Source of the DNA: Convolutriloba macropyga
Lineage: Eukaryota
NCBI RefSeq assembly: GCF_964194025.1
Contig: NC_134471.1
Coordinates: 27,900,001-27,964,000, forward strand
Reading direction: 5' to 3'
Length of the DNA stretch: 64,000 bases
The notes under the pieces are model-generated. The model was not told the DNA's origin. It ran no database searches and was given only the letters and a program-made list of their open reading frames with translations. The position numbers and the translations under genes are program-made. This document shows, piece after piece, positions 15,231 to 40,425 of the stretch (the first letter of the stretch is position 1; each line of letters begins with the position of its first letter).

Positions 15231-17043
15231 CGAATCAATGTTAATCAATTTAATGAAATCAGGTAGACAGCGTTTTATGATTGAGTTATATATGATTGAC
15301 TGACCCGGGTAATACTTCATGACGAGGATTTTTCGAGGGATAAGTTAAGTTACAACGTATGCTTAATTGCTTTCAAATTTCACTAGCTGGTCTTGTCTCA
15401 AAGCAAATCTTCGCACCTCCTTTAGTCAGTTTTTTTATTCTCCAAAATAAAGTTTTCAGCATAAACTATAAAATATTTTTGGTAGCCGCAAAGCGATAGC
15501 TGGGGCTATTATTTACCGTCTCTTGGTTTTGATTTTCCCCTCCCAAATGAAGTTTTCAGCATTAACTATAAAATATCTGTTTGGTAGCCGCAAACCAATA
15601 TCTGGGGCTGTTATTTACCGTCTCTTGGTTACGATTACTTTGAATCTGCTTTTTGTTCATTCATCCATGCAATTTCGAATTGCGTGCGTGACGTCATTTT
15701 TCACTCTGTGTAGCGAGTTTTTTTTGTTCGTTCGATTGATCAATTGCTCTCAAACAACGTTTTAATTGCTCTCGAACGAAATTCGTAGCAATTATTGCAA
15801 AGATGTTGGTCTTTTTTATGCAAATTTTTTGCTTGACCGGTTTTGCGCTTTTCTTCTAGAACATTCTTTGACTCCGCAGGTGACTTTTTCACGCTTTCGT
15901 TCTTCATTTTTGAGTGATATCTATTGCTCTCACACCAAAGTAAAGCTTGTTGCTTAAATAAAATCGATTGCAACATAGCAACAAGAAGGGCCTGTTAGCC
16001 GAAGTGAGCGGGAGCTCCATGGTTTGCATCCCGGGGTGGTTAACTATTTTTGCTGACATTTGAGAAATTTATCTAGGCAACAGTCCCTGAATTAAATTGC
16101 CTCGCCTGTCGTTCTATTAGTCGGTTTATATTTTAGAAATTATATTAGTCCTGTGGTCTTTTCAATGCAATTTTTTGCTTGACGAATTTTTTGTCTGACC
16201 CTTTTGACTTTTGGTCTTCAAAAACGGAATAAAAAGATCAGGTGAATAAAAAGACCAGTGGCAATCAGGTTTCTTGGTTCCCACTATTTAAGTATGCGAT
16301 TCACCAACTATTAACCGAAAATAAAATTTAGGTGATCTACTTTTCTTTCCTCATCTTTAATGTAGAAGTACAAGTTTCCTCAACACTGAAAGAAGAGTGA
16401 TCAATTTGTAATTGGTTTTCAATGTGAAATATGAAATTTTTTAGCAAAAGAATTTTAAAATGATTCAAACGTAACTCAACCACTATTGTTAAATTCAAAA
16501 AAACTATAATTTTATTGTGCATTCAATTTCTAAGCTTTTTAAGATAGAACTTTTAAATTTTGGCGGTTGGTAACTATTCTACGATTTTGCGAATATTCAA
16601 ATCAACTAATATTGATTAATTAATTTAGAACAAAACCAATTTTTTGTCTGTCAAATTGAATTTTTGTCCTCAAAAACGGCATAAGCAAGTAACGCCCTGA
16701 GGTCACTAAGTTCTCTTAGAGCCTTACGCCTTGCAACTCTCTAAGAATGCGAATCACCAAAAGTGTTTCGAGACAAATTTATGGTAATCTTATTCTTAGA
16801 TGTTTGAATCCCCAGTGACCCCACCCTCAATCACCCCCCTTTGAAACACCCCCAGTCCACCCTCCTCCACCTGGCCGTTTGGACCACCTCTCGTCCTTTC
16901 GTCCATCCCTCCCAACTCATCCCCCGTATCTTTACCGCCCCACCCCTCAATACTACCATATACAAGCCCCAGCAGGTTACTGCCGAAGACAACTGCAATT
17001 CGCCTGTCGTTTGAGAGCAATTTGCTCGACGTTAGTCGGTTGG

Positions 17044-17887
17044 TGTTACGCACTGATTTTTACGTGTTCCTCATGGTGTTTTCTGAGGTTAATATTGGAG
17101 GTAATTAACTTTTATAATCAGCATTTTACAAGGACTTATTTAGATGTTTCACAGTGCGATTCTTAGCAGATATATTTTGAATAAATTTAGCTAGTGATAG
17201 CCTTTTATTGAGCGGTTCGGATGTGCGATATATCCACTAGTTTGCCTTGTGTTCCAGAGTTTTAATCGTTTGCAATTATGCTCTTAGGAAGCCTGATCTA
17301 ACTTAGTAATTTTTAAAGATTTATCCAGTTCAATCTTTAATTATTTCAGCAAAAACTAATAACGAGAAGTTTTCTAGTTCTATCAAAGTTTTCCAAGATA
17401 TTAATCAACTGATTATCAGGCTGGTTCTCCGGTGTTCTGCTGATCGTAAGTTCCGCAGGACTGTGCCTCGAGTACTATTGGTCCTTCGCAAATATTTACT
17501 GATCTATAAGTTGGGCAATTTCCGGCTTTTGTACGTCTCTTGATGTTTGTTAAGTACATATACAAGTTCCGTATTAGCACCTACTTTATCAGAATAATTA
17601 CTTCACCAAGTACATAATCTCATGAAGTTATTTACTAATTATGCGAATTTATCTTCAAGAAACTCAAAAAAGTAAATATTGAGTCTTTTAGGCACTTGAT
17701 AAATTTATCAATAAACTGTCAATCTGCGGTTGTTTTTCATAAACATAAACAAATTAGGGGTTACAGGCCTAGATGGAAATACTAGCTGTATATGGCCTTG
17801 AAACTAAATGAATATTATAGCAATTATTTATGGATATTTTAAGGAATATCATCACGTAACTATGAGGGACGAAATAGGGGCGTGACA
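17044..17887 (-). repeat. 3' LTR (844 bp)
   Basis: TGTTACGC...GCGTGACA. By eye about 23 substitutions and 2 indels versus 39420-40272 (~97% identity). Confidence 0.95.
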
Positions 17888-17900
17888 CTCCCGGACTTTA
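17888..17900 (-). other. Putative (imperfect) polypurine tract
   Basis: Minus-strand AAAGTCCGGGAG directly abuts the 3' LTR; purine-rich but interrupted. Confidence 0.45.
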
Positions 17901-18451
17901 TGAAAATTTTCCATGAAAATTTTGAGAAGGAACTGGGGTTTTACAAATTTTCTATAAAACATATAATCTGCACGAGTATGAGGATATACATATGTTTTTG
18001 TTGGAGCCACCCAATTTATGTTTTCTTAGAAAAGAGTTTTTGAACGAAAGCATTTAAGTGAAAAACAATTAAGGAAGTTAAGAGAAATGAAGTTGAGATA
18101 AGGTTATAATGAAGAGGATTAAGACAAGATTAAAAGCTTTGAAGGAACATTAAGGATGTTGAAGATGCGCTATTTCAGAAGGAAAGCATGAGACATAAGT
18201 TAAAGTTAAGGTTAAGAGAAGACATTGAATTAGCACTGAAAATAATCACGCTTATTTCGTTAAATAATGGCTCTAATCTTTGAGAAGGAGTAGAAGAAGG
18301 ATACTGGTTGAATGAATGCTTTAAAGCACTGGTTAATTTCTGGGATTGAAGCACTGGTTTGATGATTTAAATCACTTAGAACCAAAACTTAATGGATGAA
18401 GGGATACTTAATCAGTTAAGGGATTAATACTTGTTGAACTATATAAGACTT

Positions 18452-20545
18452 TCAAGAGCTGAAAGTATACTTTCCTCTCGGGGTTGAGCTTGGTTTTCTA
18501 GTTCATCGTCTTTGTTGAATCGGCCCATGGTGTTGAGTGACATGGTAGAAGTTGCAGGCATGGAATTTCGTCGTTGTCGTTTTAGGGTTCCAAGTTCTTC
18601 TGGAGAGATGACTGTTGGCGGTTGCTTGAGGTGTTTGGCTAGATTTGTAACGACATCTGCTTTCAGATGTTTTGGTACTGAAACTACTGGATTAAGCGGT
18701 ACATTGTTCCGTTTCCGTTAAGCTTCATGAAATTTGGCACCATTTGTCGTACAAAGGCTACTTTATGGTATAAATACATGAAGAGGATATGTAAGGCTAA
18801 GTTTCCAATAAAGACAATGATTGTCAGCGAGAGAGAAAGCTTGATTGGCACGTAAGATTCAAGTTTGTCAATTAGTGCTGGCTTGAATGATTTCATTTCA
18901 GTGGTAATGGGCTTTGCTATGTCGTCTAATGATTCTGTTGATAACTTTCGATTGGAATAAATGAATTCTGTTTTGACTTTTTTCAGTAAATCAAGGCTGG
19001 CATCAGTGCTTGTTTCGTATTTTGGTAGCTCGTTTATGTTTGGAACTAAGTCAATTAATTGTTCTAGTGGATCAGGCAATTTAACATTGATTCTCTTTGC
19101 TGGAAGGTACTGACAACTTTGTAAATCAGCTCTGATATTAATGTGATCACTGAACATTGTGTGTCCACATTTTAATGTCATTAAACAGATGTTACAACCT
19201 TTATGGGGAATGTTGGTCTGTCGGCCATTCTCGTCCGTACCAATCTCACTAAGAGTAAAATCACTTGAAGCTGATGTAAGTAGCCATATTTCGTATCCAA
19301 GGTTCTGTGCTCGTTCGTGGTTGGGTAACACAACCTTCTCTGTGTCACATACTTTCAATGCTGTAATGGCATGATGAAACTTGAGGGTTGCTAGGTACGA
19401 GGAGAATCCAAGGTGAGTTTCCACTGTCTCATCACAGATTCGGTATCGTGGCGATCCTAGACAGTTATCATACTGAGCTCTCGTCAGTACTGTAGTTTCC
19501 ATCTGTCCTTCTGAGATTGGCTGTCCTTCTGAGTTCTCTCCCTCTATCACCCATCGTAAAGCGTCTACAGAGTCCTTCTGGGGCATAGGGATTACAATTG
19601 CACGATAAATTTCAAACACTGTCTGGCTAGAGGCTATGGGAATGGCTAGTGTCAGTAAAAGACCGTCTTCTACTGTTGAAATCTCTTGTACGAGTTTCGC
19701 ATCGTAATACGAAAGTATGTCAGTCATGGGAATTGCCAAAGTTAGACGATCTGGTGCGTTCTTTTGGCTATCATGGACTGCGTCAAGGATCTTTATCAAC
19801 GATTTTCGGGGTACTAAAGAGATTGGAAGGCGTTTGTCAAGTAAAGTAGGAATTGCATTTATAACATTAATTCGGAAAGAATGTAAGGCTGCTCAATAAC
19901 TTCTAATATCTGCATAAAGTGTAAGAAGTAAGGATGCTGCTGTGTCAAATTTAAAGTTCAGTTGTTGTTGTGTTGCTTGAATTTCCATGCAAGTTGCTAT
20001 TGCGTTCAGATTATGGTCTACAATTGCGAATTGTTCCTCAACTAGTTTCCAGTTTCTGTGCTGGTTTTCTTGCATTTCTTTTTGAACTTTATAAACCTTT
20101 GGAAGTTCGTCAGCAACTAGAAAGAATTTCTCATCGGTTTGTGCGCCGATTTCCATGACATAGTCGTTAAGGCTATTAAAACTGTTAGCTAGTCTATCGA
20201 TATTTTCAGCATTTTGAGACGTTCGTTGGCATGAGCCGAAAATTCCTGTGGTTCCACCGCATCCTCCGCTGCTCATTGCTATTCCTGGACCGAAGAGTCC
20301 AATTCCAGCGACTGCGGCTGCCCTAGCAAGCGGGGCGGCTCTTTTCTGTCTGTTTTGGGGGTCCTCTTCGACTCTGGTGAGGAGTTTTTCGGTCTCATTG
20401 CGTAGTTTAAAGACTTCAAGTTCGGCTTCGATACGTGGTACTGTAAGTCATGTTGCAAAATTCTGACTGTGTTATCCATTTCTTTGAGAGTTCAAGAAGT
20501 AGAGTCTCTACTTGTTGTCGTATCGTGAAACTGTAACGAGGAATG
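18452..20545 (-). pseudogene. env: env: class I fusion glycoprotein (F-like/errantivirus-like), with stops and frameshifts, N-terminus deleted
   Basis: Furin site RQKR at 20351-20340 is followed by the fusion-peptide-like AAPLARAAAVAGIGLFGPG, a heptad-like helix, a Cys-rich ectodomain and the TM segment LSLTIIVFIGNLALHILFMYLY. The cytoplasmic tail continues after a frameshift to TGA at 18452. No signal peptide is visible upstream of PRYSFT (~20543). Confidence 0.88.
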
Positions 20546-20715
20546 TTTATGTGGTGTTTATTTGTTTCAGGTGTACTCTGCTTTTATATCATGTGTGTTT
20601 GTGTGTGTGTTTATTGATATTACTACTAAATATGGTTTTTGAACATGTTGAAGAGTAGTTCTTCGATTGAATGGTGGGAGTGTGATTATGGGGATAGTGG
20701 TTGGGGGGTCTAATT

Positions 20716-21114
20716 ATGCAGTCTTTATGCAGTGTTTTTTCGCGTTTTTCAGATTATTCTGATATCAATATGTGCTTTAATATTACTGTCGGCCGGAATA
20801 ATATCACTCTGGGATGCTGCAACAACGGGACCAGGTATGTGTCAAGGAACTGGGTTCACTGGTCACGTTTAGTTCACCCAGAGTGCAATATTACTAATAG
20901 TACAGTAATAGTTAATAGTATAGAAGATGGAGGAGATGGTTGGGACGGGGACTCAATATTGTTATTATTATTCATATTATTATTCATATTATTCGGGATT
21001 GTTGGGATGTGGAGAAGAATGAGGGGAAGATGTGTGGGAAGAAGGAGGGGGAGGGAAGAGATTGAAGATCAGGAAGATGAGGGAGGAGTTGAAATGGAGG
21101 AGACGGCAGTATAA
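20716..21114 (+). CDS. Antisense accessory ORF of the LTR element: small single-pass membrane glycoprotein (copy 1)
   Basis: Five N-x-S/T sequons and four Cys in ~60 aa, then the hydrophobic ILLLLFILLFILFGIVGMW, an Arg cluster, an acidic tail and C-terminal ETAV. The start codon is uncertain. Confidence 0.6.
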   Translation: MQSLCSVFSRFSDYSDINMCFNITVGRNNITLGCCNNGTRYVSRNWVHWSRLVHPECNITNSTVIVNSIEDGGDGWDGDSILLLLFILLFILFGIVGMWRRMRGRCVGRRRGREEIEDQEDEGGVEMEETAV

Positions 21115-24100
21115 CTATTTATTTATTTTTATTTATATAACTTATTAACTGACTTGTAGTTGTAGTATGGATTAGTTCTCCTTAATATACTGACTACTAT
21201 ACTTGGTGCTATTAATATTTAATAAGGTGCTACTAATATCATAGTAATTAGTATATATCAAACTTGTTTTGTGGGGAAGATTGAAGACGTAAGTAGGGGA
21301 TAAAAGACAATTAGTGAAACTTTGAGAATAAGTAAATGTCAATGATAGTAGTGACGATGATAGTAGTGTCAATGATAGTAGTGCTTTTCTGCGTTGTCTG
21401 GTGCGTGTGTTAACAGATAGTGCCTAACTTCTCAAGGTGAGAAGGGTGAGCCAATGGAAATTAACTAGTTTCAGTTCAATTGTTTTGATTATCATGTAAT
21501 GTACTTTCAGTTATGGGCAAGTTTTTCGGAGATATCTTCGGATTGCAACAATTATGTTTGGTTTTTACTGGTGGAACTATTAACTGTGAAGCATGTGAGC
21601 ATGTATTAATGTTTTTGTGGCAGTGTGTAGCTATATAATGACATATTTGTGAGAGTGCAAGAATGGTGCTATAGTGACTTTTTTCATTTTTGAGCATCAA
21701 CTTAACTTCACTTGTGAAATACTGGTTATAAACTGGTTCTAATGGTTCTAGGTACTTGTCCTGGTTGTTAGCAGCACTTGGTAGACATCGGTGGGGAACA
21801 ACTATGCTATAAATTCAGGTTTTAGGGAACTTTTTTGGGCAACTTTTTATTCATGTTTGAGAAAACGAAAAATGCGAAAATTTGGGGGCCCCAGCGTCAC
21901 TCAATTTTTAAATTGCTCCAATCGGGCTCAAAATTCGCAGATCGCATCAGTGGCTCAGAAAACGCTGCAGCGCAAAAATTTGGCGCAATTTGAGCATTTT
22001 TCGCAAAGTTATGACTATTTTCGTAATCTGAACCTGGCTATTTTTGAATTATGAAATTTCGGGCTGAGTAAGTCGTCACTGTTCATACATTATAGGTATT
22101 GAATGGTTAAAATGGTACTGTCTATGCTTGGTACTAATGAATATTACTGAATTATAGGTTTTGAAGCTATTTATCGGGTCAGAACATTGATTTTTGAGTC
22201 CAAAATGCTAATTTTCAGGCGTGATTTTTCCACTATTCAAGGTTCTGCAAGACATGTGTCTGTCTGGTGATGCTCTAGTGACCTAAATCGGGTGCTAACT
22301 GTTAGTACTGATATCTGTGGCTATCAGGGGTAGCTTTTTGGTAGCTCTGGAAGTGATTAACTTGTGTTTTGTTCCAGTTTTTTTGTAGAATTTGATAGAT
22401 TTTTACTTGAGGTGGGTCATGTTTGTTGCATAAGTTGACATAGGTTGGAGATGATTGATTTTTGACGGTAACTGAGGGTCATACTAGTGAGTAATAATTT
22501 GGTGGCAGCTATTGGTGCAGTTTGATGCATGATTTGAGGTCATTGTGTTGAGTTTTTCATATTAGAATTTTGGACTAAATTTGGTCAAAGATGTGCAGAT
22601 TTCGATTTGTTCACTCTTTTCAACATTTTTGCATTTCTGTGGGATTGTATCAATTTATTAGGCTTGGAAAACTACTAGAGAGGTTGAGTAATGGATATGG
22701 GCTCATATGTCGTTTATTTTGTACTATTTTTCTGGTCTAATTCTGGTTCTGTTTTGACGAATTTGAGAAGAGTCTGGTAGGCTTCAGTATTTTGCTATTA
22801 TTTCACTATTTTACAAAATTTTACACTATTTTTAATATGAGCGTGTAGAGCTTGAGCATACGGATGTTTTAAGCTAATAATATCGGCTTTTAGATCAATA
22901 TTTTGGATTTTATTAACATGTACGTAAATTTTCAAAAAGTCTCCAAAATTGAGGACCCCAGCGTCAACCAATTTTGAAAATGCTTTGATTAAGCTCATAA
23001 TTGGTGAATCGCTTTATCGGCTCAAAAAACCCTGCAGCGCAAAAATTGAGGCGGTTTAAACTATTTTTTCACGAGTTATAACGTTTTTGCTGCAGTGAAC
23101 CTGGGTTTTTTGAAAAAGCTCAGATAGGGGATAGGTTATTGGCTATGAGGCTATGAAGAACTTGTTCAAAATGATTGATATTGCTATGGTTGTACTGCTC
23201 ATGAGTAGGGCTAAATTAACAATAATATTGGGCATATTTGAGTATTAAGATGCATTTTTGGTCACTTTTTTTGGAAATCACACTCAATTTTTTAATTTTC
23301 GTTACTTTGGCAGTCTTTTCTCAACTTGTATTGGCACTAGGGGGCTGGGAGTGCATATTCTAAGAGATATAGGTGTGGGTGTGCTTAATTGCTGTCAGAA
23401 GTTAATAGTTTTGACTTTAGTGGGAAATAACTATTTTTTCTGACAAAGTTGTGGCAATTTCAGAGCTTATTCGGGTTTAAGTCTTCATGGTTGATACTGG
23501 GATAAGCTGGCACTGGTTTTTATGGTACTACAAGGCTAGTGGGGGGTTGCACTAGGGTTGTAGGGGGTATAGGTGAATTTAATCGGGTCAGGTGGGGAAT
23601 ACAATGATAAAATTTTTTAAGCGGTGGATTGAAGCAGAAGCGCAATTTTTGTTTTTTTTTTCGCCATTTTTCAACATATACTTGGCAATATTGGGTTTTT
23701 ATGGCTGTTTGAGGTTTTTCCATGCGGGTGGCAGCTGGGAGTAGCTGCTGGAGGCATTTGAAACAGTTTTTGACATATTTTTGGGGTATAATTTACACTA
23801 CTTTTTAATCAATTTTAACACACTTTGGTAGGGTTCGGCATTTTTGTCATAACTCAACTTTTATTGATTTTTGACGGGATTTTTGGGTACTGGGACGTCA
23901 AGCGTGAGCAGTAGGATGGTCTAGGGCTCTAAAATAGGTCAATTGGGGGTTTTTTGTAGGAGTTATAATTGAATTCGTGCGGATTCGAAAAGTGCCAAAA
24001 ATCGGGGGCTCCAGCGTCACTCGATTTTTTAAGTTCTTCAAATCGCTTCAAAATTTGCATATCGGTTCCTCGGCTTGAAAAATGCTGCAGCGCAAAAGTT

Positions 24101-24236
24101 TGGAATGATCGGGGCATTTTTCACAATTTTATGACTGTTTTTCTGAGTGTTTAAACATGTTGAAGTGTAGTTCTTCGATTGAATGGTGGGTGTGTGATGA
24201 TGGGGATAGTGGTTGGGGGGGGGGGGGGGTCTAATT

Positions 24237-24671
24237 ATGCATTCTTTACATGCTTTTTCGCGTTTTTCAGATTATTCTGCTATCAATATGTGCTTTAACA
24301 TTACTGTCGGCCCGAATAATATCACTCTGGGATGCTGCAACAACGGGACCAGGTATGTGTCAAGGAACTGGGTTCACTGGTCAAGTTTAGTTCACCCAGA
24401 GTGCAATAATACTAATAGTACAGTAATAGTTAATAGTATAGAAGATGGAGGAGATGGTTGGGACGGGGACTCAATATTATTATTATTATTCATATTATTA
24501 TTCATATTATTCGTGGAGAGATTGTTGGGATGTGGAGAGATTATTCGTGGAGAGATTGTTGGGATTTGGAGAAGAAGGAGGGGAAGATGTGTGAGAAGAA
24601 GGAGGGGGAGGGAAGAGATTGAAGATCAGGAAGATGAGGGAGGAGTTGAAATGGAGGAGACGGCAGTATAA
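24237..24671 (+). CDS. Antisense membrane glycoprotein ORF (copy 2, with an in-frame repeat insertion at the TM end)
   Basis: Duplicate of 20716-21114. The frame is kept despite indels. Confidence 0.5.
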   Translation: MHSLHAFSRFSDYSAINMCFNITVGPNNITLGCCNNGTRYVSRNWVHWSSLVHPECNNTNSTVIVNSIEDGGDGWDGDSILLLLFILLFILFVERLLGCGEIIRGEIVGIWRRRRGRCVRRRRGREEIEDQEDEGGVEMEETAV

Positions 24672-27600: not shown

Positions 27601-28112
27601 TAAAGTAGGTCAATTGGGGTTTTTTGTAGGAGTTATAATTGAATTCGTGCGGATTCGAAAAGTGCCCAAAATCGGGGGCTCCAGCGTCACTCGATTTTTT
27701 AAGTTTTTCAAATCGCTTCAAAATTTGCATGTCGGTTCCTCGGCTTGAAAAATGCTGCAGCGCAAAAGTTTGGAATGATCGGGGCATTTTTCACAATTTC
27801 ATGACTGTTTTTCTGAGGTGAACCTAGGATTTTTGGAAAGGTCAATTTTAGGCTAAGATTTTGGTACTTAGAACGGGTCAAAAGGGGTCAGTTATAGCTG
27901 GAATTGCTTCTACTGGATGAGGGCTGTTCAGGACAGTAGGATAATCCAGGTTCGGACCAGTAGTTCTGGAGATATATCAAAATAACTAGGATTTAAGGTC
28001 GAAATTTTTCGAATTTTGGGCGATTTTTGGGCTTTAGGGCTAAGTTGCTCAGGCTTGTTGGGCTTTTGGGGCAATTAGATGGTACTGCTGGACTGTACTG
28101 GGTCTGTACATG

Positions 28113-28535: not shown

Positions 28536-31075
28536 CATTGATTTCTTGTCTAAAGTGATTTAAGTTTTGGTTTGATGAGCCTGGTGAAGAGTTTTTTGTT
28601 TGAGATCTGGTTACTGGTTTGTTTGCTGAACTGCTGTGCTTTTTCCCTGAATATTTGGCTATACTAGCTCTAACTTGATCTAATTTTGTCTCTCTACTTG
28701 GTGTATTTGTCTGTTTTGATGTTTGTGCTGATGCTTTTGTTGCTTCACGTTTTTCTTCTTGCTCCAATCTAGTTCGTGCATTTTTCGGTCTAGGACTGCC
28801 TGATCTTCTAACTTGGTTGCTTAGATAAGAGTTTGTTCTATCTTCTTCATGCAACATTATTTGTCTATGTAATTTAAATCCGCGTACATTTTTCCGCTGT
28901 TGGTAGTCTAGTGGTTTGAATGCACTTTTCTCTGGTTTTCGTTTAGGATTATAAGGTCGGGCTCTAATCTTCCTGTCAGTTAATGCGAATTGTTCTTCAT
29001 GTTATTCTGGAGGCGATTCAATGTCGAATGGTACTATTGATGGCTGAGGTTGTTGAGCTGGTAGGAACATTTCATCATCTGATGAGGATGATACTAGAGG
29101 AACACGATTTTCTGGTTCTTGCTGTCGAATTTCATCAGCAATTAGTGGATCAACCGGTATTCTTGCTATTTGTTGTGCATCTAGGTTCAGGTCAGCTAGA
29201 TTTTCATCTGAACTGCTATTCTCATCAAATAAGTTTGGAATTGCTTCATCTGAGCTTGAAGAATCAAATACTGGAAGATGGACTGGTGCTGTTCGTGGTC
29301 TAACTGCTGGTGCTACTACCCTTGGTGGGGCCAGTGGCACTGCTGGAGATGCTGCTGCTGGTCAAAGATGTGCAGATTTCGATTTTTTCACTTTTTTCAA
29401 CATTTATGCATTTCTGTGAGATGTGTATCAATTTATTAGGCTTGGAAAACTACTAGAGAGACTGAGTAATGGATATGGGCTCATAAGTCGGTTATTTTGT
29501 ACTATTTTCTGGTCTAATTCTGGTTCTATTTTGACGAATTTGACAAGAGTCTGGTAGGCTTCAGTATTTTGCTATTATTTCAACATTTTACTAAACAATT
29601 TTCAATATTTTTGATATGAGCGTGTAGCTTGAGCATACGGATGTTTTAAGCTAATTATATCGGGTTTTAGATCAATATTTTGGATTTTATGAACATATAC
29701 GTAAATTTTCAAACAGTCCCCAAAATTGAGGGCCCCAGGGTCAGTCAATTTTGAAAATGCTTTGATTGAGCTCAAAATTGGTGAATCGCTTTATCGGCTC
29801 AAAAACCCTGCAGCGCAAAAATTTGGGCGGTTTTAACTATTAGGCTATGAAGAACTTGTTCAAAATGATTGATATTGCTATGGTTGAACTGCTCATGAGT
29901 AGGGCTAACTGAATTAACAATAATATTGGGCATATTTGAGTATTAAGATGCATTTTTGGTCACTTTTTTTGGAAATCACACTCAATTTTTTGTAATTTTC
30001 GTTACTTTGGCAGTCTTTTCTCAACTTGTATTGGCACTAGGGGGCTGGGAGTGCATATTCCAAGAGATATAGGTGTGGGTGTGCTTAATTGCTGTCAGAA
30101 GTTAATAGTTTTGACTTTAGTGGGAAATAACTATTTTTTCTGACAAAATTGTGGCAATTTCAGAGCTTATTTGGGTTTAAGTCTTCATGGTTGATACTGA
30201 ATTGAGCTGGGACTGGTTTTTATGGTACTACAAGGCTAGTGGGGGGTTGCACTAGGGTTGTAGGGGGTATAGGTGGCTTTAATCGGGTCAGGTGGGGAAT
30301 AAAATGACAAAAATTTTTAAGCGGTGGATTGAAGAAGCACATTTTTTGTTTTTTTTTCGTTATTTTTCAACATATACTTGGCGATATTGGGTTTTTATGG
30401 TTGTTTGAGGTTGTGCCATGCGGGTGGCAGCTGGGAGTAGCTGCTGGAGGCATTTGGAACAGTTTTTGACATATTTTTGGGGTATAATTTACACTACATT
30501 TTAATCAATTTTAACACACTTCGGTAGGGTTCGGCATTTTTGTCATAACTCAACTTTTATTAATTTTTGACGGGATTTTTGGGTACTGCGACGTCAAGCG
30601 TGAGCAGTAGGATGGTCTGGGGCTATAAAATAGGTCAATTAGGGGTTTTTTGTAGGAGTTATAATTGAATTCGTGCGGATTCGAAAAGTGCCAAAAATCG
30701 GGGGCTCCAGCGTCACTCGATTTTTTAAGTTCTTCTTAAGTTTGGAATGATCGGGGCATTTTTCACAATTTTATGACTGTTTTTCTGAGGTGAACCTAGG
30801 ATTTTTGGAAAGGTCAATTTTATCCTAAGTTTTTGGTACTTAGAACGGGTCAAAAGGGGTCAATTATAGCTGGAATTGTTTTTACTGGATGAGGGCTGTT
30901 CAGAACAGTAGGTTAATCCACGTTCGGACAAGTAGTTCTGGAGATATATCAAAATAACTAGGATTTAAGGTCGAAATTTTTCGAATTTTGGGCAATTTTT
31001 GGGCTTTAGGGCTAAGTTGCTCAGGCTTTTGGGGCAATTAGATGGTACTGCTGGACTGTACTGGGTCTGTACATG

Positions 31076-31500
31076 CTAATGGATGTAAATGGTTATGGGT
31101 AGAGGGTCAAAGACTTGTCGTATAAGCTCAAAAATGATGTTAAAATCTAATTTGTCATAGCCACTGGCGAGTTTTGGAAGACTTAAGTGTGAAATTCCTG
31201 CATCTATTACTATTTCTCTCAGTTCATAAAGACTTGCTAATACAGATTCGTTTGTGGGTTTGTGGTAGTATCTGAAATTGGTAACTAAACTGAAGATATA
31301 ACGCTCAAAATAGGGGTCAAAATATATTAAAACTGAGCCAATATTCGGTGGCTATCTAAGTCTGATTGCACTTGGGGCTGCTGGGTACCAGCTTTTGACT
31401 TGTCTGGCTAATCCCTTTGCCATTGCAAAGTCTGCTGATATACAGAGTGCAAAAGAGTGCGGAGAGTGTAAGATATCTGTTGGTGAACTAAGATATGTTG
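31076..31500 (-). pseudogene. TARG1/OARD1-like macrodomain at the Pol C-terminus (premature TAG at 31352)
   Basis: Same motifs as the other copy. It follows integrase and a Pro/Ala/Ser-rich linker, and the frame continues past the TAG as PPNIGSVLIYFD. Confidence 0.88.
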
Positions 31501-34500
31501 CATTGATTTCTTGACTAAAGTGATTTAAGTTTTGGTTTGATGAGCCTGGTGAAGAGTTTTTTGTTTGAGATCTGGTTACTGGTTTGTTTGCTGAACTGCT
31601 GTGCTTTTTCCCTGAATATTTTGCTATACTAGCTCTAACTTGATCTAATTTTGTCTCTCTACTTGGTGTTTTTGACTGTTTTGATGCTTGTGCTGATGCT
31701 TTTATTGCTTCACGTTTTTCTTCTTGCTCCAATCTAGTTCGTGCATTTTTCGGTCTAGGACTGCCTGATCTTCTAACTTGGTTGGTTAGATAAGGGTTTC
31801 TTCTATCTTCTTCTTGCAACATTATTTGTCTATCTAATTTAAATCCGCGTACATTTTTCCGCTGTTGGTAGTCTAGTGGTTTGAATGCACTTTTCTCTGG
31901 TTTTTGTTTAGGATTATAAGGTCGGGCTCTTTTCTTCCTGTCAGTTAATGCAAATTGTTCTTCATGTTATTCTGGAGGCGATTCAATGTCGAATGGTACT
32001 ATTGATGGCTGAGGTTGTTGAGCTGGTAGGAACATTTCAGCATCTGATGAGGATGATACTAGATGAACACGATTTTCTGGTTCTTGCTGTCGAATTTCAT
32101 CAGCAATTAGTGGATCAACCGGTATTCTTGCTAATTGTTAAGCATCTAGGTTCAGGTCAGCTAGATGTTCTTCTGAACTGCTATTCTCATCAAATAAGTT
32201 TGGAATTGCTTCATCTGAGCTTGAAGAATCAAATACTGGAAGATGGACTGGTGCTGTTCGTGGTCTAACTGCTGGTGCTGCTACCCTTGGTGGGGCCAGT
32301 GGTACTGCTGGAGGTGCTGCTGCTGCAGGTCCTGTTGCTTGTCCACCTAGGGGGACGTTTATGGTCACTCTGACTGGGTCTGGTTTCACTTTCTTAGACT
32401 GTTGTAACTCGTTTTCTTGTTCATATATCACATCTGGGATATGTTTATCAAATAGATCAGGTTCCATGTGTTGCCGTCTTGATAGATCAGGTTGAAAATT
32501 TACAGGATTAATTACTTCAAGGCCTTCAGGGGTTTCACTTGGCTTAACTGGTTTCAATCTGATACGGTGAACACATTGTGTGTAATTCGTGTTTACTTTT
32601 CGAATGATGTAATTAGAGTCAGTAAGGACTTTTTCCACTTTATACAGCGGTAGCACTTTCTGAACTTGAGAAGCTATTACTGTTGATTGTTCTAATAGCT
32701 TGGGATTCACAAGTAAACAGAATGATTTCTCCGGAATGGGTTTTGCTGATGCTTTTTGGTCATAATACTTTTCATACACTTCAAGTATGCAGTCGTTAGT
32801 TTTTCTTTGTTTTCTCCGATCTTTTGCATCATGGCATCTTGCAGTTCATTTACAAAATCAGAATTTACTGTTACTGCATTCATTACTTCTCTGGAGAACC
32901 TAATGTCAAGGGATTTTATTGGTTCTCTGCCATGGAATAAAGTTGAAGGGCAACAATTTGTCGCTGAATGATAAGAAGTATTATGAATGAATGTTGCTAA
33001 TGCAACATATTTATGCCAATCTTTCCATTGTTCCTCAGTATTGAGCTTAAATATTCGTTTCAGTGGTCCGTGAGATCGTTCTATTGCTCCAATGGTCTGA
33101 GGGTTCTTTAGTGAGGCATGTTTTAACTTTACTTCTAGTAAACTTGCTCATTCTGACATTAATTCCGAAGTAAAATTTGTTCCTAAGTCACTAAGTATCG
33201 TTTGAGGAATGTAGCTATGTTGAAAGAACACCACTACTAATTCTCGGGCTACTGTGTCAGCATATCCATTTGTTAGTGGGACTGCAAATAGATGCTTTGT
33301 GAAAACATCTATTCGACTCAAAACATACTTAAATTGCGAGGACTTTAGTGGGCCTACTAAGTCAATTTGGAGCATATCTCCTGGATATGATTGTAGTGAA
33401 CTAACTGGTTGCAATTTTGTGTAATGTGGCTTTTCGGAACTCTGTTTAATTGGAGACAAGTCAGGCAGTTTTTAATGAAACTAATGAAGTGTTCAGTGAA
33501 ACCGGGGTAATAGAATCGCTTTCTAAATTCTTGAATTGTTGCTTTTGGGCCTAAATGACATGTTTGTGAATTATGGAGCCTATATATAGTCTCTTTCCAC
33601 AAATGCTTAGGTACACAGAATTGTTTATGAAGTACTTTTCCAGTATCATCATAAAAATTCCGGTATAAGACATTCCCTTCAAGAATTAATCTATTTAAAT
33701 GTTTGTGATACTTTTTTAAGTTGGTTGAAGCATACTTTAAGTCTGGTTGTTGATTGTTTTGTTGAATCCAGCTTATTACTGTACTAATGTCTGCATCCTT
33801 TTGCTGCTCTTCTGCTAAGTTAAGGCTAATTAAGTTGTCTGTAAGGTCTGGGAACTCATCTAATGGGTTTGGGTACTCAGTTGAATTTATTTCTTGCTTT
33901 CTTTTAAGTTTTAATAGACTTTGTATTTCTGTGACTGGTAAATTATTCTGTTTCTTTTTGTAATCGTCATAGACTCCGAGTTTTTTAAGGACGTCAAGTT
34001 CAGCACTATTAATTTCGTCATCGAAATTTTCAATATCAAATAACACATTTAGTTCAATGTCAGGATTCTGGGCTTCTGTGTCTATTTCTATTTCTCTAAC
34101 TGGAATTCTATCTGTTAACTTTAAAGACATTGTCGCTGTTTTATCGTTCTCCATTCTAGAGAGAAAATCTGCTGCGTAGTTAGCGCGTCCAGGAATGTGA
34201 GCAATTACTATGTTAAAGGCAAGTATTCTGTCTAAACAATTCCAAAGAGATGGCGGTATTACTTTTGACTGAAAGAATTGCGTAAGGCTTTTGTTGTCGT
34301 ATAATTACTTGTTTACTTGATCCCCAAATGTAGTGCAAAAAGTAATCCAGTGCATAGTACAAGGCTAGGAACTCTTTGTATTAAATTGAAAACTTTAATT
34401 GCGTTGCATTAAACAAATGCGATCCAAACGATACGGGAGCGTATGTTTTCTTTTCTTTCTTTCCAGTTTCGTTTACATAGTCTTCCACCATTAGTACAAG

Positions 34501-36860
34501 ACCTGCGCCGTGGTAACTAGCGTCACAAAGAATTACATACTGCAAGCCTGGTTTTGGCAATCGGAATGTTACATTTGTTGCTTCCATTAGATCCTTCTTT
34601 ATTACTTCTAATGCCTTTACATGTTCTTCTGTGGTTTCTATTACTGCATCCTTCTTCAGGAGCTTGTAAAATGACATTAGTTTTTCACCTAGTTTAGGGA
34701 TGTAATTTCTGAAGAATTGCGTGAAACCGATTAATCGCTTTACTTGCTTTGTTGTTTTCGGCATTTTGAATTTATCGAGAAATTTAGTTATTTTTGACTT
34801 TTCATGTGATATTCCTTCTGCACTGATGTTATTTCCAAGAAATTTCATTGTATCTGTTGCTATTTCACACTTTTCAGGTGACAATTTTAGTCCGGATTGA
34901 CGTATACAGATAAATATTTCTCGCAAAGAGGGTACCAATTGTTCAAAATTTGTTACTGCATTTCCACTATCATCTATAAACTGGGTACAATTTCCTGAGG
35001 CTAGGCATGGGTCCAAATAATGTCTAATGAAAGAGCTAAATCCAGTTACTGACTTATTCAGTCCTTGGGCAACGCATTTATAAGCATAATTTCTCGAAGC
35101 AAATTTAAATGCTAGCAGTTGCACTGATACATCGGCTGCCATTTGCACACAGTGATATACTTGAGAACAGTCAAGTTTTGTAAACAACTTTTTCCCGGCA
35201 AAGTAATTTATTGCATCATTCATGTTCGAAATTGGTAAAATTTGTATTCACATAATCGTTTTTCAGCAAATGATTTACTTTTCTCAAGTCTCTAGTCTAA
35301 GTCTTCCTGAATTTTTCCGTTGAGCGAAAAGCAGACTACTATATCTTGATTGAGACAAAGTTGTTATCAGTCCATAGTAATGCATTAATGCTAATTCTAC
35401 TTGCAACTCTATTCTCAGATGGACAGGCGTTGGAGGTCCTTCCTCATAAATTGGTATGCTTCTTTCTGGAGTTACCTTTATTTTTAAATCTGTATTATAT
35501 CCGACGTCAAATCTGTTTTGCAAAAATGTCACTGAATTCGACTAATAATTCGCCTACTACAGCTTTTTGCTCATAGTTAAGGGCCGATTTCTCCCACGGG
35601 AACTTGCTCAAAAAAGTGATTTTATCCTGATTATTACCCTTTGGATCTAATTTCTCCATTTCTTGCAGTTTGAGCAGTTGCTCAAATATTTCTCTCTGCA
35701 AGGGCGACAAATTTGTCGGATCTGGGCACGTTTCAGGCGTGGGGAACCACAATTTTTCATATTCTGGAGCCGGCTTTGCTGGTTGGGCCTTTCTTTTTGG
35801 CGTATCTGTGACTTGAATTAGTTGATTTATTTCTGTTAAATAATTTTCACTCATTTTTGCTACATTTATTAATTGAGGATCTACTTCTAACAACGTTTCA
35901 GCTTGATCTGATGTTAAGAATGAGAATTTGGCTATTTCTTTGCCTTTATTTATGGTAATTGGATGGTCAGTAATGTTGAGGACATAGATATAAAGAATAT
36001 TATTTTCAGCAACTTTACTTAAAGAGGATTTTAATATTACTTCGCTATCTTTTTCAAAGATTTCGTTTGGAATTATTACCCCACAAAGATCAGTGAATGA
36101 TTCTAGTTTGTCCTGAAGCTTGCATTCTAGTACTGCTTGTTGATTTGGTTGTAATACTTGCTCTTTCTGTGTATAAACTCCGAATTTTTTACGCTTTACT
36201 ACCCTTCTGGGTTGCTTTTCTGACTTTAATTCATTGATTTGCAGAGTTTGGTCAGGGAATTTAATGTAGCTTTGTCCTGCGCAGATGCTAACTTTATGTT
36301 TAACAAAGAATGGGTTGCCTAATATTACAGGAATTGTGACAATTAAAACAAGGAAATCTTCTGTGAATGTTTGTGTGCGCAATTTAAATGTAACTTTAAT
36401 TACTTTGTCAATTTTAACTATATTTCCGTTTGCCATTATCTAGATCCGGCTTTTCTATTTCTGTTATTGAATTGATAATTGTGTTAATAAGTTCCTTGTA
36501 AAACTCGCGGCTTATCACGTTTGCAAATGCTCCTGTATCAATTAGTGCGCGTCTTTCAAATTCTCCATTAAATTTAATTTTAACATAGGATAATGTTCGG
36601 CCTAAAAGCGGGACAATGCTATATAATTGTTGAATATGTGCTACTGGTTTTAGTGTGGGTTGAGGTACTTGTGTTGGGAGTTGCACAGATTTATTCACTT
36701 TATTTTTATTACTATTTCTTTTGCGTTTTCTACGCTTTTTGTTACTTTATAAACTGGTTCTATTACTTTATCTAAACTAGGACTAGACGTGCTTTCGTTA
36801 TAATAATTAACTGAGTTTTTATAATTTTCATTTTGTTTTTTAAAGTTGGGTGGCTTTATT
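31076..36860 (-). pseudogene. pol: pol polyprotein (PR, dUTPase-like insert, RT, RNase H, integrase, linker, macrodomain), multiple frameshifts
   Basis: PR RALIDTGA; RT KLDCSQ.YH, AQGL, QFIDD; RH ILCDASYHGAG and HIPG..N..AD.LSR; IN H..H...CLTC, QIDLVGP, LSDLGTNF. Confidence 0.95.
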
Positions 36861-36870
36861 AGTTTTTTTG
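36859..36870 (-). promoter_or_regulatory. Probable -1 ribosomal frameshift site at the gag-pol junction
   Basis: Minus-strand C AAAAAAAC TAA: an A-AAA-AAC slippery heptamer immediately before a stop, at the end of the Asn/Gln-rich gag tail. Confidence 0.55.
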
Positions 36871-38102
36871 TTGATGAAATGGGTAATTCATACTTCTCAT
36901 AGTTCTATTTTGAGGAATACTTGCACGATTAAACTGATTTGCTTGTTGACTAGTATATCGGTTTTGTGCTGGCGCTGGGCTATCATAAACTATTCCCTGT
37001 CGAAGAAGATTTGCAGGGGTATTTCCAGTAGGGAACCGATAAATTGGTCTATTAACATAAGCTGGATGAACAAATGGGGGGCTATTTGAAGGTTCAGTCC
37101 AATGATTCCGAGTTTGTGGCTGTTCATTATGATAAAATGGTCTAGGGGCATTAAATTGTGGTCTAAACTCTCGGTAATTATTAGCACGGGGGGCATACTG
37201 TTGCTGGGGCCGATAGTTTTGCTGAAATTGACGATAATTGGGCTGATATTGAGGGTAATTTGGTTGATAATTTTGATAATGCGGGCGAAAATTTTGTCTA
37301 TAACTTTGTCTGTAGACTTGTTGTGGGTAATTTGGTGTGAAAATGTTTACTGGGCCTTGTTCTGGTGGCTCATTTTTACTGCTATGCTCTGTTCAAGTTT
37401 TTGCTCAAGTTCTTTTTGATTATTTGAGATAACAGTTATTGCTTTTAACATTTTATCTGTATTTGATTCTGTTATTTCGTTAAATCCATCGTCAAAGTAC
37501 TCTTCTCTGTTACACATCTCCCTAATTGCAATTTGTTGGCTAGCTAAGGTGCATAATTGGTCAATTGTATCAGTATCTGGCCTTTCTAACAACTTAGGCT
37601 TAAGCCAGTTCGGCATAGACTTAATGAAGAAGCGCTTTATTTGTTCATTTTTCCTGTTTTCTGACATTTCAAGGGCAGATTCCCTTGCTGCTGTCTCTTT
37701 CAAATCTACGAGCCTCAGCATCACGTCCTCCTGCTGCCGCTACTACTATTTCGGGTGCTGGATATGCTTTATTTGCTTCTGTTCTCAACTTTACTAAGAC
37801 ATTTTTTACTGTATCAGTTTTTGGATCTCCAACTTTATTATTCTGATCTCTCTCAAGTCGTCTTGTGTGAATCTATTTCTTAGAGCTGTTATACTATCCG
37901 CAAAAACTAGTCTGGTAGCCTCTGGTAGGGTTAGAAAGTATCTTAATGCATCTCCTTTTAAATGTAATTGCAGAAAATTCGCTTGTTGGGCGGCTGCGAT
38001 TGCTGCAACTCCAATTGCACCTGTTATTAACTGTTCAAATTCGTTGAAATTGTCCGTTTCTGATCCAGAGAAGGGTGTGATGTTGATTTGCGCGTGTGAC
38101 AT
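36859..38102 (-). pseudogene. gag: gag (frameshifted)
   Basis: MSHAQINITPFSGSE...FLQLHLKGDALRYF...ALRNRF is a Gypsy capsid-like start, followed by FIKSMPNWLKPKLL and an N/Q-rich tail. It lies directly upstream of the protease. Confidence 0.85.
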
Positions 38103-38601: not shown

Positions 38602-38964
38602 TTATTCTGATATTATCTGGTAATCAGTAAGGATGTTGTCAAGGTTAATATCTCTATCAGATTGAAGTTTGTTACGAATAAGGCCAAATTTGCGAGCTTT
38701 TTGATTTAAACTTTTCGCTATCCAATAAATTGCAACACGTTTATCATCTTTATCTAGCACATAAATTACGATGGATTTAGAAACTGAAGAGGAGAAAGCG
38801 GTTACTATCTGAGCTTGCGTTTTGTTACTGTTTTGTGTGTAGTTGATGTTATTTCCTTCAATATGTTCAACAAAATTGGGGGAAGTGCGGCAATTATTAA
38901 TAGCGGGGAGAATTTGTTCTTTATAAATTGACTTAAATAAAGCACCAATATTAATTTTACAAAT
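38602..38964 (-). pseudogene. Extra open frame (ORF0) between the PBS and gag
   Basis: 120 stop-free codons (ICKINIGALFKSIYKEQILPAINN...IVIYVLDKDDKRVAIYWIAKSLNQKARKFGLIRNK...) preceded by one in-frame TGA and 30 more open codons. Absent from the ORF track because it lacks an early start codon. Confidence 0.5.
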
Positions 38965-39155: not shown

Positions 39156-39361
39156 TGCTCGGAAAGGAAGTGCTGGAAGCTGATTGAATGTTCTTAAGGT
39201 AATGAAATGGAAGAAGATAAAGAAAGTGTCAAAAGAAGAAAATGTCGAATTTATCAAATGCTCGGAAAGGAAGTGCTGGAAGCTGATTGAATGTTCTTAA
39301 GGTAATGAAATGGAAGAAGATAAAGAAAGTGTCAAAAGAAGAAAATGTCGAATTTATCAAA
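39156..39361. repeat. 103-bp perfect tandem duplication in the 5' leader
   Basis: TGCTCGGAAAGGAAG at 39156 and 39259. Confidence 0.92.
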
Positions 39362-39401
39362 GAATTATTCGAAAATTTGGTCCGCTAAACTGGGAAACAG
39401 T

Positions 39402-39419
39402 TAGTAACTCCTGTCACCA
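39402..39419 (-). promoter_or_regulatory. Primer-binding site, tRNA-Leu-like
   Basis: TGGTGACAGGAGT directly after the 5' LTR; 12/13 match to the tRNA-Leu PBS TGGTGTCAGGAGT. Confidence 0.75.
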
Positions 39420-40272
39420 TGTCACGCACTGATTTTTACGTGTTCCTCATGGTGTTTTCTGAGGTTTATATTGGAGGAAATTAACTTGTATAATCAGCAT
39501 TTTACAAGGACATTTAGATGTTTCACAGTGCGATTTTTAGCAGATATATTTTGAATAAATTTAGCTAGTGATAGCCTTTTATTGAGTGGTTCGGATGTGC
39601 GATATATCCACTAGTTTGCCCTGTGTTCCAGAGTTTTCATCTTTTTCAATTATGCTCTTAGGAAGCCTGCTCTAACTTAGTAATTTATAATGATTTATCC
39701 AGTTCAATCTTTAATTATTTCAGCAAAAATAAGTTAACATTTAATAACGAGAAGTTTTCTAGTTCTATCAAAGTTTTCCAAGATATTAATCAACTGAATG
39801 TCAGGCTGGTTCTCCGGTGTTCTGCTGATCGGAAGTTCCGCAGGACTGTGCCTCGAGTTGTATTGGTCCTTCGCAAATATTTCCTGATCTATAAGTTGGG
39901 CAATTTCCGGCTTTTGTACGTCTCTTGATGTTTGTTAAGTACATATACAAGTTCCGTATTAGCACCTACTTTATCAGAATAATTACTTCACCAAGTACAG
40001 AATCTCATGAAGTTATTTACTAATTATGCGAATTTATCTTCAAGAAACTCAAAAAAGTAAATATTGAGTCTTTTAGGCACTTGATAAATTTATCAATAAA
40101 CTGTCAATCTGCGGTTGTTTTTCATAAACATAAACAAATTAGGGGTTACAGGCCTAGATGGAAATTCTAGCTATATATGGCCTGGAAACTAAATGAATAT
40201 TATAGCAATTATTTATGGATATTTTAAGGAATATCATCACGTAACTATGAGGGACGAAATAGGGGCGTGACA
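39420..40272 (-). repeat. 5' LTR (853 bp)
   Basis: TGTCACGC...GCGTGACA with perfect 8-bp terminal inverted repeats; adjacent to the PBS. Confidence 0.95.
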
Positions 40273-40425
40273 GTTGGTTTTTAGCCACACATGGTTTAGC
40301 TCAACCAAAGTTGACTTTTCTCACTATTAAATTGATGAAGTTGAGCAATTGTAGTAGTCCTGTGGTTTTCCTATGCGACTTTTCGCTCGACCGATTTTCC
40401 GTCTGACACATTTGACTGTTTTCCT

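Follow-up and report, generated by a model that had tools for sequence, protein, structure and literature searches.

According to the available part of PMC13524379, env-carrying Ty3/gypsy elements with an F-type env form the 'ancient errantiviruses'. They share with the elements described here the LTRs, a tRNA primer, gag, the order of protease, reverse transcriptase, RNase H and integrase (PR-RT-RH-IN), a separate env with a basic cleavage site and a hydrophobic peptide, and the occurrence of many similar copies; its main text has no mention of 'macro', 'dUTPase', 'antisense' or 'accessory'. The first filter of that survey, as described there, accepted a pol-env gap of ≤1 kb and a total length of ≤10 kb, and its later manual steps gaps of up to 3-5 kb. 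Since the pol-env spacers of the lineage reported here measure about 2.3-5.8 kb, most of it would have been missed.

Cargo-bearing relatives are also known, and the comparisons that follow refer to the accessible parts of the cited papers. The planarian giant gypsy element Burro is likewise very large, with env homology, a dUTPase-like domain between PR and RT and extra domains tied to ubiquitination and apoptosis (PMC6431247), so that neither large size nor the possession of accessory genes is new in itself. However, the cargo of Burro (BIR, BCL2, MATH and SUMO-like) lies in the sense polyprotein, and a macrodomain, JmjC or an antisense spliced gene are not mentioned in those parts. The bdelloid rotifer elements TelKA, Vesta and Juno have a paramyxovirus-like env, a dUTPase domain, an exchangeable extra ORF and small membrane ORFs, but the extra ORFs named there encode env, a GDSL esterase or a DEDDy nuclease, and 'macro' does not occur in the accessible text (PMC5408684). 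A macrodomain captured by a retroelement is known from epsilon-like fish endogenous retroviruses, which, as compared by the citing text, belong to Retroviridae and carry it only occasionally (cited in PMC4977317).

Antisense genes are found in complex retroviruses, and the plant gypsy elements Grande, RIRE2 and Retand have conserved antisense ORFs with their own promoter between pol and the 3' LTR, with functions unassigned and the word 'intron' absent from the accessible text (PMC7264820). In our lineage, by contrast, the antisense genes precede env and their predicted products show matches to enzyme families. Finally, the Ginger1/Imagin group combines a YPYY-type N-terminal motif, an H2C2 finger, an OTU domain and 1-4 introns, and its catalytic core was lost upon domestication (PMC2836005, PMC12863088); the core-less gene of the family studied here differs in being kept in antisense by a mobile element and not by the host.

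The window element and its family

The window, a stretch of 64,000 nucleotides of the Convolutriloba macropyga genome, contains on its minus strand an element of 23.2 kb (17039..40277; Table 1), which is Ty3/gypsy by its LTR ends, the 5-bp target duplication on both sides, the tRNA primer site and the pol order PR-RT-RNase H-integrase, with an integrase C-terminus of the gypsy type (Pfam). The polypurine tract before the 3' LTR was conserved, and purine-rich only in part. The initial annotation had proposed a single provirus bounded by target duplications, with LTRs ~97% identical, and indeed the LTRs lie inside matching 5-base flanks and are 97.3% identical (ungapped columns). The proposed gene order, from ORF0 and gag through PR, insert, RT, RH, IN, macrodomain, spacer and antisense ORF to env, was recovered, with an additional linker between IN and the macrodomain. 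The window copy itself is decayed: stops or frameshifts break every coding region, and it has lost the beginning of env together with the entire zinc-finger/OTU gene of the antisense strand. Removal of its three internal duplications leaves ~16.4 kb, in agreement with the ~16.5 kb given earlier, but this length describes a deleted copy, and the earlier gene list, being taken from that copy, lacked the main antisense cargo.

Table 1. Features of the element in the window (positions are those of the whole stretch).
Feature	Position	Strand	Remark
Target-site duplication, 5' side	40273..40277	.	identical 5 bases at 17039-17043
5' LTR, 853 bp	39420..40272	-	TG..CA ends
Primer-binding site for tRNA-Leu	39407..39419	-	13 bases = 3' end of a host tRNA-Leu
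103-bp tandem duplication	39156..39361	.	private to window copy
ORF0, ~110 aa, no known family	38602..38964	-	start codon lost in window copy
gag, broken	36862..38102	-	no Pfam match
pol: aspartic protease	36248..36629	-	Pfam
pol: conserved insert between PR and RT	35858..36208	-	Pfam E 0.024; dN/dS 0.06
pol: reverse transcriptase + RNase H	34152..35478	-	Pfam
pol: integrase	32520..33716	-	Pfam
pol C-terminus: TARG1/OARD1-like macrodomain	31076..31531	-	homology to human C6orf130 (family copy); dN/dS 0.11
pol end duplicate with second macrodomain copy	28113..29360	-	private duplication
Non-coding spacer, partly duplicated	21491..31075	.	no codon periodicity; 170-bp modules
Antisense membrane-protein ORF, duplicate	24210..24671	+	internal duplication
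Deletion junction: antisense HHCC-OTU gene of the family missing	21345..21491	.	gene absent from window copy
Antisense ORF, small single-pass membrane glycoprotein (predicted)	20698..21114	+	5 N-glycosylation sequons
env, probably F-type	18462..20543	-	N-terminus deleted, frame broken in window copy
3' LTR, 844 bp	17044..17887	-	TG..CA ends
Target-site duplication, 3' side	17039..17043	.	identical 5 bases at 40273..40277

From the LTR identity it had been suggested that younger intact relatives may exist, and younger copies were found, with LTRs >99% alike and lengths of up to 18.7 kb. Four of nine young LTR pairs enclosed elements of 18.6-18.7 kb with a spacer of 5.7-5.8 kb, and 7/9 young copies had the 5-bp target duplication as well. 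The family amounts to hundreds of loci in this genome (934 candidates for the LTR, 811 for the macrodomain), and ORF0 (441 candidates, 150/150 scored matches), the macrodomain, the spacer and the antisense membrane ORF are fixed features of it and not one-off insertions. A homologue of the membrane ORF was present in 9/10 other env-bearing copies and in record L198. The family spacer contains three 170-bp modules; the module was dismissed as an independent high-copy repeat, as its 644 candidates genome-wide correspond to about three per element (locus context unchecked), and neither the LTR nor the 3-kb module region was retained as coding. The spacer showed no codon periodicity. A metagenome scan returned one locus. 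The atlas search with ORF0 gave a weak lead, namely lipocalin-like clusters with scores of 0.84-0.87.

To measure selection, we compared variants shared by ≥3 copies with private variants, using 24-66 copies per gene. For shared variants dN/dS was 0.12 in ORF0, 0.06 in the insert, 0.11 in the macrodomain, 0.07 in env, 0.38 in the membrane ORF (p 0.002) and 0.16-0.22 in antisense exons 1-4 (p 3e-38), versus 0.9-1.75, i.e. about 1, for private variants (Fisher p across genes from 0.002 to 1e-84). The predicted introns of the antisense gene gave 1.4-3.1 (p 0.37) and its exon 5 gave 0.97, with no selection seen. Family-wide genes under purifying selection thus bear out the view of a complex env-bearing Ty3/gypsy element with accessory genes.

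Macrodomain, PR-RT insert and env

In family copies the macrodomain closes pol in frame, and that of one copy matched human C6orf130 (TARG1) with E 5.5e-15. The position of the catalytic Lys and that of an Asp, which we take to be its catalytic partner, were each kept in 24/27 copies. In TARG1 the catalytic Lys is K84 (PMC8501950). By homology and by this Lys/Asp pair the domain is TARG1/OARD1-like, with a predicted hydrolase activity; its glycine-rich loop in the window family differs from that of TARG1, and several sister families have a weak or partial version of the domain. A search for long proteins containing the macrodomain gave 25 matches, all 75-97% identical, therefore other taxa lay out of its view.

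The insert between PR and RT had been labelled dUTPase-like, and this label is weak: the Pfam dUTPase match had an E of 0.024 only, single-sequence and profile searches against solved structures gave no dUTPase match, and the five catalytic motifs of dUTPases were not found by eye in 11 sequences. The insert is possibly a dUTPase-derived fold devoid of recognisable catalytic motifs. In env we saw a basic cleavage site, a hydrophobic peptide and a C-terminal membrane segment. One of 32 relatives matched Pfam Baculo_F, below the cut-off (E 0.002), and there was no significant match in the PDB; env is probably F-type.

The antisense slot

Between pol and env the family carries an antisense gene of five predicted exons, whose predicted product combines an integrase-type HHCC zinc finger with an OTU-like cysteine protease. 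Introns 1-3 have six splice dinucleotides, each of which was kept in 29-30 of 30 copies; in these copies exon lengths were constant and intron lengths variable, and the GC content was 0.47-0.49 in exons versus 0.22-0.34 in introns. Families only 30-40% alike in the HHCC-OTU protein have intron positions in common. With the exon ends of sister families set by eye ahead of the check, splice signals were found at the same codon positions for acceptor 1 (7/7), donor 3 (6/6) and acceptor 3 (5/6), and donor 2 was GT in 6/7 and GC in one. In contigs from a single study (four runs), none of the 15/31 joints listed skipped a predicted intron, and as these contigs look DNA-like, the joints say nothing on splicing. 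We rejected reading the three short ORFs of the antisense strand as individual genes, since the hydrophobic tail of the middle ORF falls within intron 2 (dN/dS 1.38), as well as an alternative acceptor in intron 1, which was less conserved and unmatched in sister families.

The two His in exon 1 and the CxxC opening exon 2 are kept. For exon 1 no database relative was found outside this element lineage: its profile gave 8 matches among 1.84 billion proteins, all apparently from the same lineage, and the atlas search gave none. Its integrase ancestry therefore relies on the motif pattern and on one Pfam match with E 0.34. No integrase (DDE) core was detected in the antisense gene. Fold models had a pLDDT of 45.6 for exon 1 and 42.6 for exons 2-4 with introns read through, the latter with no structural match.

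Compared with the OTU domains of Helitrons in the host, the profile of exons 2-4 from 8 copies reached a probability of 96.9 with E 1.6e-10, and six sister copies scored 12.9-29.8 bits versus a maximum of 5.6 in 800 shuffles. The OTU-like region of the window family alone was not significant (2.0 bits versus shuffles of up to 6.5; in a second test 5.8 and 0.5 bits versus a shuffle maximum of 5.6), and it had no match in Pfam or the PDB. The assignment for this family follows from its sister families, which match the OTU profile and to which it is linked by tblastn (E 1e-5 to 4e-6). The predicted triad is retained in decaying copies (Cys 57/63, His 58/64, Glu 59/64), with ~60 residues between CxxC and the OTU-like Cys; the Asp found three residues before this Cys in host OTUs is replaced. 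At the clade level, profile homology and the Cys and His-x-acid motifs in the expected order qualify the product as a putative OTU-like cysteine protease. The gene was present in 3/8 LTR-selected and 7/10 macrodomain-selected copies, and copies devoid of it still have near-identical LTRs; it is dispensable in cis.

In 9/10 other env-bearing copies the same antisense slot is filled by a JmjC-like ORF. Taken singly these ORFs are weak, with 3/9 matching Pfam, all below the cut-off; their profile matched PHF8 with E 3e-6, and His-x-Asp/Glu...His occurs in 9/9, so that by iron ligands and profile homology the sister-family ORFs can be classed as JmjC-like. Thus, related families fill the antisense slot with either an HHCC-zinc-finger/OTU-like or a JmjC-like gene, and the RT tree, which covers elements of this genome only, requires at least two changes of cargo type.

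What the accessory genes may do

Purifying selection means that the proteins matter, but it does not by itself show counter-defence, which the initial annotation had proposed; the proposal is nevertheless better supported than was then known, given that OTU-like or JmjC-like genes also occur in the family and its sisters. Alternatively, the accessory proteins could serve the mechanics of the element, with the HHCC protein regulating or tethering integrase, the macrodomain only binding ADP-ribosylated chromatin and thereby steering integration, and the folds of OTU and JmjC type acting as readers. The HHCC half looks like the N-terminus of an integrase, motif changes lie close to the active sites, and the macrodomain sits where other gypsy integrases have a chromodomain (bioRxiv 10.1101/2021.11.30.470311); also, Ginger1 and Helitron transposases carry fused OTU or Ulp1 domains, for which the available part of PMC2836005 suggests a role in transposition. 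However, all three enzyme types retain their catalytic residues, the near-identical LTRs of copies devoid of the antisense gene speak against such a role, and the swapping of unrelated enzymes in one slot on close backbones fits a changing host target better, so we consider mechanical service unlikely.

It could also be that the antisense strand acts mainly as RNA, self-limiting or a source of small RNA, or that the proteins benefit the host and are tolerated by the element. Antisense transcripts regulate some retrotransposons (PMC7264820, accessible part), and the antisense gene is often deleted; yet selection acts on exon-frame codons and not on introns, and its signature lies in variants common to several copies, which places it during replication, whereas single integrated copies decay neutrally, which makes this very improbable. 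We give hardly any credence to the extras being passengers, a nested Ginger1-like transposon remnant with captured host fragments. Apart from the catalytic core, the antisense gene does have the parts of a Ginger1 transposase (N-terminal motif, H2C2 finger, OTU and introns, as far as the accessible descriptions go), and a Ginger1 origin is likely. No Ginger1 donor was found among 22 loci of 27 matches; the OTU domains detected in the host were either cellular or carried by Helitrons. Passive carriage is not likely: it is largely refuted by the low dN/dS of the antisense exons and by intron positions kept between such divergent families.

The results are best read as a lineage of complex Ty3/gypsy elements that have an env and an antisense slot in which host-mark erasers can be exchanged, and we regard it as probable that the window holds a decayed copy of such a family, with a TARG1-like macrodomain and selected antisense genes that likely encode erasers. 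Copying would proceed by the usual LTR route with a tRNA-Leu primer. The antisense genes would be transcribed from an internal promoter near the start of env and then spliced; because they face backwards, their introns would be invisible in genomic RNA and hence survive reverse transcription. The macrodomain would travel with integrase and strip the integration complex, or its DNA, of ADP-ribose, the OTU-like and JmjC-like proteins would ease silencing by stripping ubiquitin-type and methyl marks, respectively, and env with the small membrane protein may mediate spread from cell to cell. More tentatively, the elements could form an infectious Metaviridae clade with a swappable, intron-keeping antisense cassette and active erasers of ADP-ribose, ubiquitin and histone methylation, one cargo being the gene of a DNA transposase that a retroelement has domesticated. 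If true, animal retroelements would have their own equivalent of the macrodomain-plus-deubiquitinase kit found in large RNA viruses, and here a retroelement would encode histone demethylases.

To our knowledge, few element-encoded counter-defences are known in animals, and the finding bears on how env-bearing retrotransposons remain active despite host silencing. In recently copying families selection maintains three small enzyme domains, which are exchanged between families and suggest that the host barriers are ADP-ribosylation, ubiquitin and histone methylation. The antisense slot also offers a retroelement a route to retain an intron-containing gene. As surveys demanding an env close to pol miss such elements, more of them may hide in other genomes.

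The window copy and its family

The window element was bounded by two LTRs of 97.3% identity, with an identical five-base sequence flanking both outer ends, and the 13 bases directly after the 5ʹ LTR, the primer site, matched a host tRNA-Leu at its 3ʹ end. Its 23,229 bp shrank to ~16.4 kb once three internal duplications were removed. This is in agreement with the initial annotation, which had described an LTR-bounded provirus with a target duplication, ~97% LTR identity and ~16.5 kb after removal of duplications. In this copy gag, pol and env were all broken, and the env start was missing. Large tandem arrays of tRNA-Leu genes stood at L195, L197 and around 45.2 Mb of G000:C11, and the tRNA-Leu pattern had 167 exact matches. 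Near-perfect two-copy tandem duplications lay at window 8876-9803, 40426-41156 and 1710-2177 (463, 366 and 233 bp, respectively) and multi-kb ones in many element copies elsewhere in the genome, suggesting a tendency to tandem duplication in the genome or in its assembly. The direct-repeat array at window 47700-64000 (units of ~815 bp and 1.15-1.5 kb, 60-98% alike, GC raised) resembles a host gene whose exons are repeated in tandem.

The family was searched in its own genome (1.18 Gb), giving candidate counts to be read as minimum values rather than as copy numbers: 934 for the LTR (40 scored), 811 for the macrodomain and 441 for ORF0, the last two with a match in 150/150 scored each. We compared 7 LTR pairs chosen by LTR similarity and 10 loci chosen by long pol frames. 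Nine pol-picked loci had both LTRs, which were 99.4-99.9% alike in eight, so that the younger relatives suggested earlier do exist; a target duplication was present in 7/9 and a length of 18.6-18.7 kb in 4/9. In young copies the macrodomain was the in-frame end of a pol frame of 1,937 residues. ORF0 and the macrodomain, whose absence from relatives had been considered, were found in 8/8 and 7/8 LTR-picked copies (window included) and in 10/10 pol-picked copies each, the antisense membrane ORF in 6/8 and 6/10, and the HHCC-OTU gene in 3/8 and 7/10. Fourteen older copies, 60-83% alike, retained the same layout in pieces. The RT catalytic motif (pol, window ~34950) was F/Y-M-D-D in 9/10 sequences listed. 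In one copy (L010, C10-) the spacer was interrupted, 10.1-11.8 kb from the start of the copy, by 1.7 kb of unrelated inserted DNA that contains a transposase-like ORF.

Selection and domain identities

We calculated dN/dS gene by gene from single-base codon variants against the commonest codon of each column; variants in at least three copies counted as shared, arisen during element replication, and private ones as decay after insertion. Variants found in just two copies were excluded, as were codons that contained gaps or more than one change. On shared variants, dN/dS was 0.09 for gag, 0.12 for PR, 0.02 for RT, 0.03 for integrase and 0.07 for env, and among the extras 0.06 for the PR-RT insert, 0.11 for the macrodomain, 0.12 for ORF0 and 0.38 for the membrane ORF, as compared by Fisher tests with private values of 0.9-1.75 across genes. 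The shadow frame on the opposite strand was low too (0.12-0.53), yet above the true frame every time, and nearly always contained stops. No codon periodicity was found in the remaining spacer or LTR. The accessory genes of the initial annotation's 'complex' Gypsy element are thus real and selected, but its gene list was incomplete, the HHCC-OTU gene having been lost from the window copy.

The macrodomain of one family copy matched human C6orf130/TARG1 (E 5.5e-15 over 149 residues), from which its glycine-rich loop differed. The Asp aligned to the TARG1 dyad Asp, part of the catalytic dyad, was kept in 24/27 copies. So was the Lys aligned to K84, which PMC8501950 gives as catalytic. The PR-RT insert was strongly conserved; its earlier dUTPase-like label is weak, the sole link being a Pfam match of E 0.024, with none of the dUTPase motifs found and no match among solved structures.

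The antisense gene and the exchangeable slot

About 1.7-1.9 kb was absent near window 21345-21491; the segment was found in 40/40 scored of 176 genome candidates. In young copies it appeared as three short antisense ORFs, which we rejected as separate genes, since by sequence they are predicted exons separated by GT-AG introns. The start codon and splice dinucleotides were each kept in 29-30 of 30 copies (of 32 match sources, 2 partial ones were dropped). Exons were rich in GC, constant in length and varied less, and introns were AT-rich with length differences not multiples of three; shared dN/dS was 0.16-0.22 in exons 1-4, 0.97 in exon 5 and 1.4-3.1 in introns read in frame. Sister families, with exon 2 mutually 30-42% alike, had splice signals at identical codon positions (donor 1 matched in 4/5 sisters). 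Exon 1 ended after two invariant His and exon 2 started with CxxC, so that an integrase-type HHCC finger would be complete only once both were spliced.

Exons 2-4, read with X at junctions, were compared with the OTU domains that host Helitrons carry. With 8 copies aligned, the match reached 96.9% probability (E 1.6e-10), six sister copies scored 12.9-29.8 bits against at most 5.6 for 800 shuffles, and in reverse 9/12 host OTUs exceeded the best of 1,200 shuffles. The window family's own copies scored 5.8 and 0.5 bits, and an earlier OTU profile test on them alone was negative. Helitrons at L091-L097 and L123-L132 had the OTU domain at the N-terminus of open frames reaching ~2,500 residues. 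In its parts the antisense gene corresponds to a Ginger1 transposase minus the DDE core (PMC2836005), and we infer that the gene probably derived from such a transposase.

Coordinates of LTRs and antisense genes (introns predicted)
Feature	Position	Strand	Basis
5ʹ LTR	window 39420-40272	minus	LTR pair comparison
3ʹ LTR	window 17044-17887	minus	LTR pair comparison
HHCC-OTU exon 1	L024 (copy keeping the gene) 5620-6029	antisense to element	GT-AG intron after
HHCC-OTU exon 2	L024 6141-6400	antisense to element	GT-AG introns
HHCC-OTU exon 3	L024 6474-6637	antisense to element	GT-AG introns
HHCC-OTU exon 4	L024 6716 to ~6915	antisense to element	GT-AG introns
HHCC-OTU exon 5	L024 7000-7112	antisense to element	GT-AG intron before
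JmjC-like ORFs	L134:3390-4004, L136:3169-4071, L137:6303-7517, L139:6090-7175, L142:2821-3906	antisense	
JmjC-like ORFs (continued)	L143:6064-7311, L145:6035-6871, L150:3342-3953, L151:5953-6570	antisense	

Other env-bearing families gave 2,681 candidates (59 scored), from which ten sister copies were sampled (RT 70-78% alike to the window family; three nearly identical to one another). At least seven of them, those with LTR pairs listed, were 12.4-15.4 kb long, with LTRs 99.4-100% alike. Nine of the ten had a macrodomain match (one weak), and nine a small antisense membrane ORF (signal-like N-terminus in two). Behind it stood a JmjC-like antisense ORF in 9/10 and the HHCC-OTU gene in 1/10. 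The JmjC-like ORFs had His-x-Asp/Glu and a distal His; their profile matched PHF8 (E 3e-6), and Pfam matches, below cut-off, occurred in 3/9. In an RT tree with 18 rows (midpoint root for drawing only; one locus without RT omitted), the cargo label, assigned in three rows from the exon-2 match alone, required three changes, of which strong branches force at least two. Three copies with nearly identical RT had two visibly different JmjC-like genes. In an outside record, L198, the antisense membrane ORF stood ahead of an env that was 53% alike.

The nine JmjC-like ORFs listed were of at least three distinct types. Sister families also had further, differing leader ORFs of 110-136 aa between the 5ʹ LTR and gag (L135:4973-5447, L138, L140), some co-occurring with an ORF0 homologue. 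The membrane ORF (L024:4779-5105; window 20698-21114) had two divergent allelic types within the window family; as contigs also break at the predicted splice acceptor, exchange of its exon is suggested.

Precedents and possible roles

Every single ingredient of the window family has a precedent. Gypsy elements with env occur across animals (PMC13524379), and the giant Burro elements carry cargo as well as a dUTPase-like insert (PMC6431247). Extra ORFs are known from rotifer elements (PMC5408684), macro domains from fish retroviruses (PMC4977317), antisense ORFs from plant gypsy elements (PMC7264820), internal promoters for env from the Tor elements of Oikopleura (PMC4402516) and OTU from Ginger1 and Helitrons (PMC2836005). 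A full-text search of non-subscription papers, judged by titles and abstract starts, found no gypsy element with a TARG1-like macrodomain, OTU, JmjC or intron-containing antisense gene. Judging by the sequences, the window family is real and stands further from the usual than was first thought: its members are Ty3/gypsy elements with env, accessory genes under selection and an antisense slot whose cargo can be exchanged.

Beside the anatomy, selection and domain identities, observed as stated for each, we consider it rather probable that in this LTR element the macrodomain and the OTU-like or JmjC-like antisense products undo host marks and relieve silencing. That the accessory proteins have a mechanical or targeting role instead seems unlikely to us. 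We regard as improbable an RNA role of the antisense region or a benefit to the host, and as still less credible that the extras are passive cargo.

In the favoured reading of relieved silencing, replication would follow the ordinary LTR route with a gag-pol frameshift, and env would be made from subgenomic RNA. Transcription of the antisense genes would begin at a promoter inside the element, close to where env starts, and their introns may persist because the packaged RNA is of the opposite strand. The macrodomain would arrive with integrase and reverse ADP-ribosylation. As a separate product, the OTU-like or JmjC-like protein would undo ubiquitin-type or methyl marks and so relieve silencing. 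Copies without the HHCC-OTU antisense gene still multiplied, and thus the gene would work in trans or be of use only under some conditions.
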